From assembly GCF_057098645.1 (NCBI RefSeq), contig NZ_CM169472.1: a stretch of DNA of 64,000 nucleotides. One strand, 5' to 3'. Position 1 is the first letter of the stretch, and each line of letters begins with the position of its first letter. This document shows, piece by piece, positions 663 to 5,127 of the stretch. Both the position numbers and the translations under genes were made by a program. The notes beneath the pieces were generated by a model. It saw nothing but the letters and a program-made list of their open reading frames with translations, was not told where the DNA came from and did not search any database.

Positions 663-914
663 TTATCTGTCGATTCCCCAGCACGCCAGCGCGCTCTCCT
701 GGTCACGACGGGATACCTGACCGTAACAGTTATTTGAGCGAATACGGCAGTCCCTGCCACCGTCCTTAATCCACCAGCGAATAGCTTCGCAGGCACCTTT
801 TCGATCTCCTGCATTAATCCGTCTGTAAAACGTCGACGGGAAACACTTACCGGGGCCAATGTTGTACGGACAGAATGACGCAATCCCCGCTTTCTGGGGT
901 TCGGTCAGTGGCAC
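663..914 (-). pseudogene. Phage endolysin R, C-terminal fragment, separated from its N-terminal part by IS629
   Basis: ORF track 663..914; continues the frame that is cut at 2227..2509 on the other side of IS629. Confidence 0.7.
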
Positions 915-958
915 TCTGAACCGCCCCGGGTTTCCTGGAGAGTATTTTATCTGTGAAC

Positions 959-1849
959 TCAGGCTGCCAGATCATTATTTCCGATGGAAGCATAATAAGC
1001 TTTTTCTGCTTCTGCCGGAGGAATATGGCCCAGCCTTTCCAGCAATCGTCGATTGTTATACCAGTCCACCCACGTGAGTGTGGCCAGTTCCACTTCTGCA
1101 CGGTTTTTCCAGCTCTTACGGTGTATTACCTCCGCTTTGTAAAGACCATTGATGCTCTCCGCCATCGCGTTGTCATACGAGTCGCCAGTACTCCCTGTTG
1201 ATGCCAGTAATCCGGCTTCCTTAAGCCGCTGCGTGTAGGCCAGCGATACATACTGAGAACCTTTATCACTGTGATGGATTGTGCCGGACGGCCGACGGGC
1301 CCACAACGCCTGCTCCAGTGCATCCAGCACGAATGTTGTTTCCATGGATGATGAGACCTGCCATCCCACGATGTATCCGGCGAACACATCAATGATGAAC
1401 GCCACATAAACGAAGCCCCGCCATGTGCTGACGTAAGTAAAATCAGCCACCCACAGCTGGTCAGGTCGTTCTGCCACGAACTGACGGTTTACGCGGTCGC
1501 CTGCGGCAACGGCTTTCCGGCTGATGGTCGTACGGACCTTTTTACCCCGGAGAACACCGGCAAGTCCCATAACTGCCATGAGACGTGCCACAGTGCATCT
1601 GGCCACTCTGATACCTTCCCGTAACAACTGACGCCAGACTTTACGCACACCGTATACCTGGTGATTTTCATCGTATACGCGCTGTATCTCTTTCTTCAGC
1701 CAGTCATCGTGCTGCGCACGGGCACTGCGTTTATCCGGATGATGTCGCTGTTGCTGACAGTGGTAATACGTTGACGGGGCAATATGCAGTTCGCTGCATA
1801 GCGGTCCGACCCCGTACTGCTCACGCAGCTTATCCAGCAGTGGCATCAT
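959..1849 (-). CDS. IS629 transposase OrfB (integrase/DDE catalytic part)
   Basis: 296-aa ORF in the -1 frame relative to OrfA, overlapping it at an A6 run as expected for IS3-family frameshifting. Confidence 0.9.
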
Positions 1850-2172
1850 TTTTTCCAGAGGCGGTCGAACTCCGCCTTCGCAAAATAAGCGGAAGCCTGG
1901 CGAAGGATATCGTTACTGCGGCGCAGTTCACGATTTTCACGCTCCAGCTCTTTCAGACGCTGACGTTCAGCGGTGGTGAGCCCGCCATCACCGCCCCCGG
2001 TATCCCGCTCATGCTGGCGAACCCAGACACGCAGAGTCTCCGGCGTACAGCCAATCTTTGGAGCAATGGAACAAATTGTCGCCCATTGTGAGTCATATTC
2101 ATCCTGACTTTCCAGAACCATACGAATCGCCCGCTGACGGACTTCGGGGGAAAAACGAGTATTTTTAGTCAT
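1846..2172 (-). CDS. IS629 transposase OrfA (HTH DNA-binding part)
   Basis: 108-aa [18 protein letters not shown]...[21 protein letters not shown], recognised as IS629/IS3-group OrfA with its leucine-zipper segment. Confidence 0.9.
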
Positions 2173-2226
2173 CCTGTTTACCTCTTTCTCAGGGAGTTTA
2201 GTCTCCAGGATTTCCGGGGCGGTTCA

Positions 2227-2509
2227 CTCTGATGTTTTTCTCCACCCATGCCAGCGCCTTATCACGCTCAATGGCGTTAACCCGGTCGCATTTTTCCTTC
2301 GACAGCTTCATGCCAGGAATAACAGGCTTACCATCCACCCGGGTGGCTCCACGGCAGATGGTCCAGATACCCGCACCATCACGGTATGCTGTGGTGTGGT
2401 TACCTTCCTTTTCATCCAGAAACTGGTCGAGGATTTCAGGCGCAGACGCCCCTGCACCAATCAGCGCCAGAACGGCAGCCGACAGGCCGTATCTGATTTT
2501 TGCGTTCAT
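2227..2509 (-). pseudogene. Phage endolysin R, N-terminal fragment, interrupted by IS629
   Basis: ORF track 2198..2509 (MNAKIRYGLSAAVLALIGAGA...); the last residues of that ORF are read from the IS629 end, so the native frame is cut at the IS junction. Confidence 0.7.
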
Positions 2510-2559
2510 GGATATTTATCAGGGTTTATCGATTTCAAATCCCTGGATATGTTAAGTCT

Positions 2560-2907
2560 TCAGGCCAGCGGTGGAGTCTTCAGAGAACCCGTAATTATTC
2601 CCGGTAGTTTTCCTCTGTAGGTTATCAACACATCCTGCGCCTCTAAAATTACGGGACGCTTTTCCGGTAACGGACCATCCCCTTCACATAACCCGGCAGC
2701 AACATCCATGAAAAACTGCTTCGCCTGCTTTTTCGCCTCAGCTTCGTAAAACTCCAGCGTGGCACCTTCAGTACGGTCAAGACTAATCGCCACATCTGGC
2801 AACAACAGTGACGGATACCCACCAATTTCCAGTGCCACAGTAACAGTAATCTTATCCGGGTAATTATTTATCCCTTTAACAACCAGTTCGTATTTTTTCT
2901 TCATCAC
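2560..2907 (-). CDS. Hypothetical soluble protein between holin and endolysin
   Basis: 115-aa ORF, co-directional and abutting the holin stop; no transmembrane segment, no recognisable motif. Confidence 0.4.
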   Translation of the reverse strand: MMKKKYELVVKGINNYPDKITVTVALEIGGYPSLLLPDVAISLDRTEGATLEFYEAEAKKQAKQFFMDVAAGLCEGDGPLPEKRPVILEAQDVLITYRGKLPGIITGSLKTPPLA

Positions 2908-2908
2908 T

Positions 2909-3124
2909 TTACTCTCCCCGCGCCGCCTTACGCCGGTCTTCTTTAATCTTGAAATACAGGTTCGTCAGATATGTCAGCAGCCCAAACAGCAGACTCCCCA
3001 GCACGCCTATCGCCACCCACTGGGACGGAGAGACTTTGTCCAGCAGCTGCAGTAACCAGTATCCCGTCCCCACCGCTGACGTGGTGTATGACACACCCGT
3101 TGTGATTTTTTCCATCTGGTACAT
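2909..3124 (-). CDS. Phage holin (Stx-phage/phage 21 S type), dual-start MYQM motif
   Basis: ORF track 2909..3229 trimmed to the internal start [28 protein letters not shown]...; two hydrophobic helices and a charged C-terminus. Confidence 0.7.
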
Positions 3125-3273
3125 ACCCCGTCTCCCGTTATCCGGAAGCTGACAACAATAAAAAAGCCACCAGTTAACTACTGATGGCTCTGATAACTCA
3201 TGCAGGCGTCTCAGACGACCCACTGACACTACCGGTGAGTTTAACGATACCTTCCATTTGACTGGCTCACTTT

Positions 3274-5127
3274 TTATGATGATGCCGGTGCATTTATCTC
3301 CAGCACCAGACTTTCTATCTCAACGCCATACGCTGCATTTTTTGTAACATCCGTCAGCGTCAGCGCATTCAGTCCCAGTGTCATACTGTCTTTTATAACC
3401 TGGAATGCCGGGCCAGCCACTCCATTCAGTTTCGGAGTAACCGTGGCACTGCCGGCGGTGAACACCAGCTCCAGCGTCTGCCAGTCGTTACCGTAATCGC
3501 CGAACTCCCCCAGCTTCGTGTTTCCGGCTTTCCTGTGATGCATCAGATTCACTCTGCCGTCAGTGGTCTGAGTGAAGTACGACATCAGGAACGGATTACC
3601 GGTACCCGTCATCGCCACACCATCAGGAACGGGAGCATCCGTATACAGATAAATCCCCAGCCCGAACTGATTGTTGGTCAGTGCGCCTGACAGGCGGAAC
3701 TTACAGGTCAGTCTGCCGCCCTGTGTCAGCAGGGTAATTGCGTCATCCACCGGATGCGTCAGGGACCAGGTTTTATTGCTCTGCTTGGTGATCTTAAATA
3801 CACCATCTGACAACTGAATTCCGCCATCCTTAATGCTCCAGCCCTGCGCAGCAGCCTCTCCGGCTGCCGGCAGCAGGGAGATTGTGCGAACGGACGTATC
3901 TGCAGACGGACCCGATGGCGTGTTGCCGCCGGGCGAGGGTTTGATTTCCGGTGCCTTACCACTGATGAAGGCTGAGGTGCGCCCGGCTGCGTTCAGAATA
4001 GCGGTTGCCAGACGATCCGGAATAATGCTCCTGCGCGCCCATGAACTGAAATGTGTCGGGCGGTTTGATGATACCTGGTTTCCATTCGTTCTCGATGCCG
4101 CACCGTAATATCCTGATGCCGGAATATCCGGATCTTCTGCCGGCGCGTTAGTGGCGGTATTGACGCCGTTACCGTCTGTCATGAAGGGCACAAAATAAAC
4201 GCCCTCACTCTCCCTGTTTTTGTACGCCCCGTAAATGGTGTTGTACTGGGTGCCGTAGGTATTTTTCCAGTAATACGTCGTGTCACCACAAATCCACGGC
4301 ACATCTGCAGCACTGCCACCATGGCACTGCGCGTTAAACACGGAGAGGTCAGCACGAAACTGTGCCAGCATGGCTGTAAACAGCGCAGGTTGCTGTGCGT
4401 GGGTGGCGGCGCTCATGTCAAACTCTCCCTGCATCCAGCACACCGCCAGCAACACATTTTTCGGGTTCTTCTGTAATGCAGCTTTAGTGCGCGCAATCAG
4501 GTCCTGATATAACGGTTTACCCACACCCCAGCGCGCCGAATCCTGGCTGGCCCCCGCGTCCGCACTGAATGTCCCCTCCGCGCCCTGGGTGAATGCCGAA
4601 CCACCACGACAGCATGGTACCAGCAGGATCCCCGCGTTATTCGGGATATACGGAAGCAGTTTTTTGGCAATATGTAAGCCCTGGCCGACACAGCCGTACT
4701 GCCCTTTGCTCAGGTCTGCCTTCGGATGATTCAGCGTACTCATATCCTGCACATCATGCAGGCAGTGGTCGGCCGGAATAATATCGTTATATCTGCAGGC
4801 AGCCCCACCCGGCGTAACTGTACTGCGGCGCGCCAGCTGTTTAATGCGCGGATCCGGAGCATCGTATGAATCCGGCAGCGGAAGCCCTTCACCGTAAGCC
4901 ATGGCATTGGACTGCCCGGCCAGTACGATGACGTAGTACCAATCCGGCTCAGTTGCACCACTGACCACCACATCACCTTCTGCTGTAATCGCCTGCATCA
5001 GGGTATAAGGGGTTATGGCCACCGGACTACCAAACGGCTGCCAGCCCTCTTTCAGTTTGTGTGTCAGCTTTTCCGCAAGGTCTGACGGCGACGCCGCCCT
5101 GACAACATCATAATGTTTAAATGTCAT
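3274..5127 (-). CDS. NanS-p-like prophage sialate O-acetylesterase
   Basis: 617-aa ORF; N-terminus [21 protein letters not shown] is typical of the DUF1737 prophage esterases; GQSN esterase motif ([16 protein letters not shown]); sits between the stx-equivalent position and the holin as in Stx phages. Confidence 0.7.

Follow-up and report, generated by a model that had tools for sequence, protein, structure and literature searches.

The 64,000-nucleotide stretch of DNA analysed here (contig NZ_CM169472.1 of NCBI RefSeq assembly GCF_057098645.1; hereafter the window) begins inside the late region of a lambdoid prophage, where a holin gene, S, a small open reading frame (ORF) and an endolysin gene, R, follow the late antiterminator gene Q and an esterase gene. 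R is interrupted by an insertion sequence (IS). It is highly probable that this reflects the ordinary decay of a toxin-free prophage that was already defective, with a recent insertion of an IS629-group element into R and an intact cargo. An initial annotation, made from the sequence alone, had described positions 663-5127 as a lysis cassette like those of Shiga toxin (Stx) phages, inactivated by IS629; every element that it named, from Q through a moron, the esterase, the holin and an ORF to the endolysin, lies where it had been placed, on the minus strand. The cassette comprises the following features, in which SAR stands for signal-anchor-release and TSD for target-site duplication.

1-392, minus strand: antirepressor gene ant, first 130 codons, cut by the window start (Pfam P22_AR_N, E=5.8e-46; PHROG anti-repressor Ant)
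663-913, minus strand: 3' part of the SAR endolysin gene R, codons 95-177 and stop (reconstruction; tblastn match)
914-916: TSD copy (CTC on the plus strand, GAG on the minus strand)
917-2226, minus strand: IS629/IS1203-group element of the IS3 family, mosaic isoform, 1,310 bp
959-1849, minus strand: orfB of the IS (Pfam rve/HTH_21)
1775-1891: ALIL frameshift pseudoknot, spanning the orfA/orfB overlap (Rfam, 120 bits)
1846-2172, minus strand: orfA of the IS (Pfam HTH_Tnp_1)
2227-2509, minus strand: 5' part of R, codons 1-94 and 1 nt, containing the second TSD copy (2227-2229)
2560-2904, minus strand: YdfR/DUF1327 ORF, 114 aa, between the holin and endolysin genes (Pfam DUF1327, E=1.8e-46)
2909-3124, minus strand: P21-type class II holin (pinholin), 71 aa (Pfam PF04971 Phage_holin_2_1, E=8.5e-33, residues 5-67; PHROG holin)

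The IS cuts R after codon 94 of 177 and leaves it without the full-length ORF that the SAR endolysin family requires, i.e., as a pseudogene; the ORF actually encoded at its 5' end (2198-2509, minus strand) specifies 103 aa, 94 of them native and nine derived from the IS. As the initial annotation had it, the element is flanked by a 3-bp direct duplication (914-916 and 2227-2229). Excision in silico of the IS and one duplicate, the check which that annotation had proposed, restores an uninterrupted, in-frame R of 534 nt (177 aa) that matches the intact 'lysozyme' genes of O145:H28 strains RM12761 and Z1323HEC0422 at 534 of 534 nt. Because this removal yields exactly the R of the relatives, the sequence argues strongly for genuine transposition, not chance or misassembly, as the origin of the split; since no nucleotide of the flanking sequence has yet diverged from intact R alleles, the insertion is recent.

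The reconstructed protein matches Pfam Phage_lysozyme (PF00959, GH24) over residues 33-167 (E=1.5e-24) and aligns over residues 9-174 with the P21 SAR endolysin structures 3HDE and 3HDF, with further PDB matches to 7M5I and 4ZPU. The catalytic motif E35-X8-D44-X5-T50 can be read off its sequence, and residues 8-23, GLSAAVLALIGAGASA, form a Gly/Ala/Ser-rich putative SAR segment that pairs, from residue 9, with the SAR region of P21 R in 3HDE. A second intact endolysin, the finding that the initial annotation had named as contrary to its reading, does not turn up in the 64-kb window, where tblastn with lambda R and with the reconstructed R recovers the two R halves only.

The interrupted allele itself finds no counterpart. 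Megablast searches of 5,426 complete Escherichia coli genomes with both R::IS junctions return only matches that join non-contiguous pieces, an exact-sequence protein look-up with the 103-aa R'-IS fusion product gives no match, and neither does a scan of metagenome contigs for the exact junction 31-mers. Since the junction is absent from the genomes, proteins and metagenome contigs searched, the allele appears to be private.

The inserted element shares with the IS629/IS1203/IS3411 group its 1,310-bp length, its terminal inverted repeats (imperfect, with 41-nt arms beginning TGAACCGCCCCGG), its 3-bp TSD and its overlapping orfA and orfB, between which -1 programmed frameshifting is predicted from the ALIL pseudoknot; both of its ends are complete. 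It is 96-98% identical to copies that the Prokaryotic Genome Annotation Pipeline (PGAP) names 'IS1203 family' or 'IS3 family': 96.4% to the 'IS1203 family' copy of O157 strain FRIK2455 and 97.5% to O145-type copies, including the second IS of the window (33 differing sites). By contrast, it is identical to no sampled copy. The best full-length match reaches 98.4% among the 5,426 complete E. coli genomes and 98.2% among plasmids, a search of these genomes and of the PLSDB plasmids for a copy at 99% or above returns none, and site-by-site comparison shows a patchwork of known isoforms, with stretches of O103, O145/O157 and E105 type and a single private site. At 96.4% identity and with this mosaic make-up, the element in R is not taken for the O157 'IS629', and the name used by the initial annotation is correct at the level of the isoform group only. 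At that level it is acceptable, because sub-types 4-5% apart, including IS1203 and IS3411, are treated as IS629 isoforms (Rump et al., PMC3271280). In the same survey, 62% of the IS629 copies are located in prophages (PMC3271280).

The remaining lysis genes are undamaged. The pinholin, whose N-terminus MYQMEK offers a Met1/Met4 dual start, is identical to that of relatives and is predicted to form pores; the YdfR ORF is identical to the WP_000731241-type proteins of relatives. Together, the P21-type holin and R make up a pinholin/SAR-endolysin cassette, and such cassettes are typical of Stx phages (PMC10462455). The likeness to phage P21 extends to the holin, which falls in the Pfam family 'Bacteriophage P21 holin S', and to R, which aligns with its P21 counterpart including the N-terminal SAR segment. 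P21 differs in that its R is only distantly similar; the window has a DUF1327 ORF between S and the disrupted R, and in a cassette of this kind ant stands between R and Rz.

In the normal pathway, the pinholin would act first, the SAR endolysin next and the spanin last. The truncated R would keep the SAR helix and the E-D-T residues while losing the C-terminal half of the lysozyme fold, and is presumably inactive; lysis would then stall after membrane depolarisation, with no degradation of murein. Even if late transcription were driven, e.g., by a lambda-type Q from another prophage, lysis would be expected to stop after pinholin action.

That no spanin gene (Rz/Rz1) follows R, as the initial annotation remarked, is literally true inside the window: a 270-bp spacer and then ant lie 3' of R, and tblastn with the YYZ-2008 and lambda Rz proteins finds no Rz in the whole 64 kb. 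The remark does not carry over to the prophage, since the window starts within ant and relatives have Rz/Rz1 beyond that point. RM12761, Z1323HEC0422, RM9154-C1 and CEC03102 share the order R, ant (570 bp), a 147-bp ORF and Rz (468 bp), and the Stx1 phage YYZ-2008 has R, ant and Rz, without an annotated small ORF between ant and Rz; the Rz gene of the relatives holds an embedded +1-frame ORF for the Rz1 lipoprotein, with the lipobox VVSAC. Because window positions 1-919 are 100% identical to RM12761 (28177-29095 of the compared RM12761 locus), which has Rz/Rz1 after ant, these genes are expected 331-798 bp beyond the window start. The apparent absence of a spanin would be an artefact of the window edge rather than evidence about the prophage.

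Upstream of the cassette, on the other side of the esterase gene and its neighbours, the prophage continues through Q and part of the nin region and then breaks off at a second IS copy, next to the chromosomal gene ypjA:

6546-6782, minus strand: region downstream of Q, with homology to lambda PR'/qut (alignment, about 75 nt)
6783-7406, minus strand: lambda-type late antiterminator Q, 207 aa (Pfam Antiterm, PF03589, E=4e-58)
7403-8068, minus strand: Ser/Thr phosphatase of the nin region (Pfam)
8065 to about 8670, minus strand: NinG (Pfam; annotation of relatives)
8642-9289, minus strand: HNH endonuclease ORF (Pfam; annotation of relatives)
9754-11526, plus strand: 590-aa low-GC (about 35%) ORF of the nin region (phrog_9230)
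11886-13195, minus strand: second IS copy, O145-type, without a target duplication
13193-17083: truncated ypjA, adjoining the second IS

Between the nin region and the chromosome, neither the ORF list nor Pfam reveals an integrase, a repressor, N, O or P; int, cI, cro and N are missing from the compared relatives too. The second IS is 100% identical to the IS copies of RM12761 and Z1323HEC0422. Relative to RM12761, ninE, dam, ninB, ren, P and O' are gone on one side of it and about 0.8 kb of ypjA on the other, so that ypjA, which encodes an EhaD-type autotransporter adhesin, lacks its 3' end and with it the C-terminal beta-barrel. Because the int, immunity and replication genes are missing, the prophage should be unable to be induced, to excise or to replicate on its own, whatever the state of R. 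The initial annotation had judged the prophage to be lysis-defective and probably cryptic; crypticity stands, but the reason shifts, the loss of the early region being stronger evidence for it than the lesion in R.

Q is identical to lambda Q at 202 of 207 residues (98%). Downstream of it, the -35 element of PR' (TTGACT) is conserved and the Q-binding region largely so, the -10 element reads GAAACT vs. TAAATT in lambda, and the homology ends shortly thereafter; the interval from Q to the esterase gene contains no tRNA genes. Both IS copies point the same way and bracket a 9.7-kb segment (2227-11885) that holds R', ydfR, S, nanS-p, the small RNA (sRNA) genes, the morons, Q, the nin genes and the 590-aa ORF, a layout which resembles a composite transposon and offers a substrate for IS-IS deletion.

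Several comparisons place the prophage. Positions 40-64 kb of the window are 100% identical to chromosomes of the O145:H28 lineage, e.g., RM9154-C1 and RM12581, and positions 2296-9437 are 99.7% identical to the ssrA-adjacent prophage of O157:H7 strain FRIK2455, which carries espM2 and espW. Since these are the effectors listed for Sp17 (PMC2323221), a prophage located at ssrA (PMC8190617), the match points to orthology with Sp17 of strain Sakai, and the prophage is best described as a defective lambdoid remnant at the ssrA-ypjA locus of an O145:H28-lineage (enterohaemorrhagic E. coli, EHEC 1) strain. The Sp17/FRIK2455 prophage, also a defective remnant, has the same ssrA ... ypjA neighbourhood and the same Q, phosphatase, NinG, HNH, moron, DUF3927, esterase, holin and YdfR genes. 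It differs from the window, which keeps both R halves and ant in place, in that an IS66-family element interrupts its R and everything downstream is rearranged; the end points of its early-region deletion are also not those of the window.

The O145:H28 relatives have taken other paths. RM12761, 99.9% identical to positions 9-24 kb of the window (91% covered), differs in keeping an intact R, an intact moron, the genes from ninE through a truncated O and a full-length ypjA. Z1323HEC0422 likewise has an intact R and differs further in keeping ninE and dam, which are lost from the window; its prophage lacks head genes. RM9154-C1 has the closest backbone and lacks the whole segment from R to nin, including nanS-p and agvB, a single IS standing between ant' and ypjA'. 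Its derivation from the window arrangement by recombination between the two IS copies (IS1 x IS2) was considered and rejected, the IS-ant junction lying at window-equivalent position 364 and the ypjA junction 242 bp off; the segment was lost independently. Because the relatives carry different deletions, decay at this locus is ongoing and lineage-specific. Elsewhere in the R family, CEC03102 has an IS1203 copy inside R at another position, and an IS1203-associated deletion in O111:H8 strain TW05614 joins a truncated nanS-p to the 3' end of R. Given these independent lesions in CEC03102, TW05614 and FRIK2455, IS damage to this endolysin family would seem to be common in EHEC prophages.

Between Q and the holin gene lie the genes that can be regarded as cargo:

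3125-3273, minus strand: esterase-holin spacer, with a 12-bp hairpin and a U6 run at 3163-3191
3274-5127, minus strand: nanS-p-type sialate O-acetylesterase gene, 617 aa, intact (Pfam DUF1737, SASA and DUF6645)
5275-5336, plus strand: AgvB anti-GcvB sRNA gene (Rfam RF02702, 96.5 bits; gathering score 56)
5337-5527, minus strand: STnc100-family sRNA gene (Rfam RF02076, 144.7 bits; gathering score 47)
5535-5702, minus strand: DUF3927/TciB-like small membrane protein gene, 55 aa, intact (Pfam DUF3927; phrog_1470)
5788-6530, minus strand: low-GC 'moron' for a 247-aa membrane protein, frameshifted (moron region 5788-6545)

The esterase combines a DUF1737 N-terminus, a SASA catalytic domain and a lectin-like C-terminal domain, the architecture described for NanS-p (PMC10462455). 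Residues 59-379 match E. coli NanS (PDB 3PT5, E=4.9e-121) and a second match, to the 'NanS-p' C-terminal domain 6YP6 (E=7.4e-30), covers residues 421-613; the gene has no stops, and its product differs from those of relatives by 3-23 aa. A GQSN motif aligns with that of NanS; the esterase is a bona fide NanS-p-type protein, with predicted activity on Neu5,9Ac2. NanS-p genes are known from Stx and non-Stx prophages (PMC10462455; PMC8065619), and their products have been found to be active and to sustain growth on Neu5,9Ac2 (PMC8065619).

Two sRNA genes that the initial annotation did not mention converge in the stretch that separates nanS-p from the DUF3927 gene. AgvB matches the Rfam consensus at 62 of 62 positions, including the GcvB-target motif CACAACA. 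The same convergent arrangement in the moron site downstream of PR' has been described by Tree et al. (PMC4104026), in whose work Sp17 of Sakai is home to one of two AgvB copies, and AgvB sponges GcvB and raises competitiveness in bovine rectal mucus. A recent preprint reports a conserved synteny of esterase, PasA/C, holin and lysozyme, relates PasD to STnc100 and finds that fewer than 3% of chromosomal copies adjoin stx (preprint 10.64898/2026.05.13.724894). By this synteny, the hairpin in the esterase-holin spacer, the fold of which is modestly stable (z=-2.2 vs. shuffles), could be a candidate PasA/PasC-type sRNA; alternatively, it could be a terminator.

The DUF3927/TciB-like protein is identical to that of relatives. 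The 247-aa moron is intact (744 bp) in RM12761, FRIK2455 and phage 434, and carries in the window, alone among the compared copies, an A7->A6 frameshift near 6046 that leaves ORFs of 172 and 80 aa; the Z1323HEC0422 copy has another homopolymer frameshift, T6->T5, near window-equivalent position 5994. These two frameshifts reflect either independent pseudogenisation under weak selection or homopolymer sequencing errors. The initial annotation had suggested that the esterase and the moron might be retained for the benefit of the host: the esterase is indeed intact, but the main moron is frameshifted and not obviously retained, and a plausible host-beneficial cargo would consist of the esterase, AgvB and STnc100, not of the frameshifted protein moron.

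How far the region deserves to be called Stx-phage-like depends on the segment. As the initial annotation stated, toxin genes are absent: tblastn with Stx1A/B over the 64-kb window gives no match at E<1 and no remnant, and the interval from Q to the esterase gene holds the moron, the DUF3927 gene and the two sRNA genes in place of stxA/stxB. The likeness holds for the esterase-S-ydfR-R-ant part, which is 96.7-99.3% identical at the nt level to the Stx1 phage YYZ-2008 over window positions 1-919, 2225-3118 and 3271-5423, and about 96-97% identical to other Stx1a phages, H-19B included; the order esterase, holin, YdfR, SAR endolysin, Ant and Rz/Rz1 is shared with these phages at 96-99% nt identity. 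Upstream of the esterase gene the likeness ends. Stx1a phages carry stx1AB and another Q, of the 144-aa class, and the homology stops, in YYZ-2008, about 205 bp downstream of stx1B; the window instead has a lambda-type Q, the membrane-protein moron, DUF3927 and AgvB/STnc100, and its esterase-holin spacer also differs. The Q-moron-TciB-sRNA-esterase-holin block is about 95-96% identical at the nt level to the non-Stx phages 434 and 2B8, which share the succession of a 744-bp moron, TciB/DUF3927, a SASA esterase and a class II pinholin, although 434 has a Q82-like Q and another SAR endolysin with spanins directly after it, and the esterase gene of 2B8 is interrupted by a mobile element. The architecture is thus a general module of lambdoid late regions and not specific to Stx phages, with the stx operon and the moron/sRNA block as alternative occupants of one site.

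A few features of the flanking region stand apart from these questions. The HNH ORF starts with MAKPARRRC, which we take to be the N-terminus of lambda NinG; a homing-type HNH gene looks to have been inserted into the 5' end of ninG, with NinG restarting further on. Near 8527, ninG has in addition lost 9 nt in frame, a deletion private to the window. The 590-aa ORF is intact in the window and in Z1323HEC0422 but broken into two in RM12761, and neither Pfam nor PADLOC gives a match for it; when it and the 247-aa moron are searched against Pfam, PHROGs and PADLOC, both return only families of unknown function and no defence-system model, and the larger ORF is a possible moron or defence candidate. 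A tRNA gene at 19988-20063 (minus strand) is called tRNA-Met (CAT) by ARAGORN, while its orthologue in relatives is annotated as tRNA-Ile (ileY-type, with a lysidine-modified CAU), a matter of naming.

In the reading that we favour, ordinary decay, IS-associated deletions had already stripped the prophage of its genes for integration, immunity and replication when the 1,310-bp IS transposed into R at codon 94/95 with a 3-bp target duplication. The lesion in R would be one more neutral step of decay and not the cause of crypticity. Some points weigh against this account. The allele is without independent confirmation, the exact insertion being absent from the 5,426 genomes, the protein collection and the metagenome contigs. 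No IS copy closer than 98.4% is slightly odd for a recent transposition, though the element looks like a mosaic of known isoforms. The loss of lytic activity is deduced for a 94-residue fragment, the state of Rz/Rz1 and of the head and tail genes is taken from relatives that differ among themselves, and the moron frameshift, lying in a homopolymer, could be a sequencing error. Co-resident lambdoid prophages could also complement the remnant in trans, with R, Q or other functions.

Some of these points would fit an assembly artefact, in which the IS was misplaced into an intact R during repeat resolution: the exact junction is absent from all collections searched, and an unusual isoform mosaic could in principle be produced by a collapsed-repeat consensus. 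However, a precise 3-bp TSD and the perfect in-frame reconstruction of R are signatures of true transposition, and both IS ends are complete with their inverted repeats intact, which makes the artefact scarcely credible. It is unlikely, though less far-fetched, that the remnant is a former Stx-converting prophage whose esterase-S-R-ant part came from an Stx1-type phage and whose Q-stx segment was replaced by recombination. The 96.7-99.3% identity to YYZ-2008, ending about 205 bp past stx1B, would suit this history, as would the ability of Stx phages to integrate at ssrA (PMC2323221) and the published argument that esterase-sRNA-holin-lysozyme modules stem from Stx phages and that stx has time and again been lost or moved (preprint 10.64898/2026.05.13.724894). 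Yet the window holds no stx remnant, Q is lambda-type, the non-Stx phages 434 and 2B8 match the block from Q to holin at about 95-96% identity, and modular lambdoid exchange explains such a mosaic without a stx-bearing ancestor.

Distinctly improbable is a selected domestication, in which the IS in R was favoured for disarming lysis while Q-dependent expression of nanS-p and the sRNAs was kept without killing of the host. In its favour, three or more other genomes have independent IS lesions in the same endolysin family; the genes for the esterase, the pinholin, Q, AgvB and STnc100 are intact or identical to those of relatives; AgvB aids growth in bovine rectal mucus (PMC4104026); and NanS-p enzymes are active and allow growth on Neu5,9Ac2 (PMC8065619). 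But with the early region already gone, the lysis genes posed little autonomous threat; the pinholin gene, lethal when expressed, was left intact; IS629 prefers prophages generally (PMC3271280), so that recurrence is expected without selection; and among close relatives, RM12761 and Z1323HEC0422 keep R intact while RM9154-C1 has lost the entire segment, nanS-p and agvB included. The broader proposal that the recurrent IS hits in R (in the window, CEC03102, TW05614 and the Sp17 orthologue) are a selected route to non-lytic platforms for NanS-p, AgvB and STnc100 that can be activated by Q in trans has a slimmer chance still.

If domestication were nonetheless true, the direct IS copies would make the 9.7-kb R'-S-nanS-p-sRNA-Q-nin cargo mobilisable or deletable as a unit. 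Under ordinary decay, the insertion in R adds an IS629-group allele to a class of decaying EHEC prophages that is already well known, and has little weight beyond strain-level genomics, where it could serve to type O145:H28-like strains or to mark lineages among them. Genes that seem to be missing at a window edge, such as those for the spanins, warrant no interpretation. For prophage remnants of this kind, the conserved cargo is the NanS-p esterase together with the AgvB/STnc100 pair, and not the annotated protein morons.

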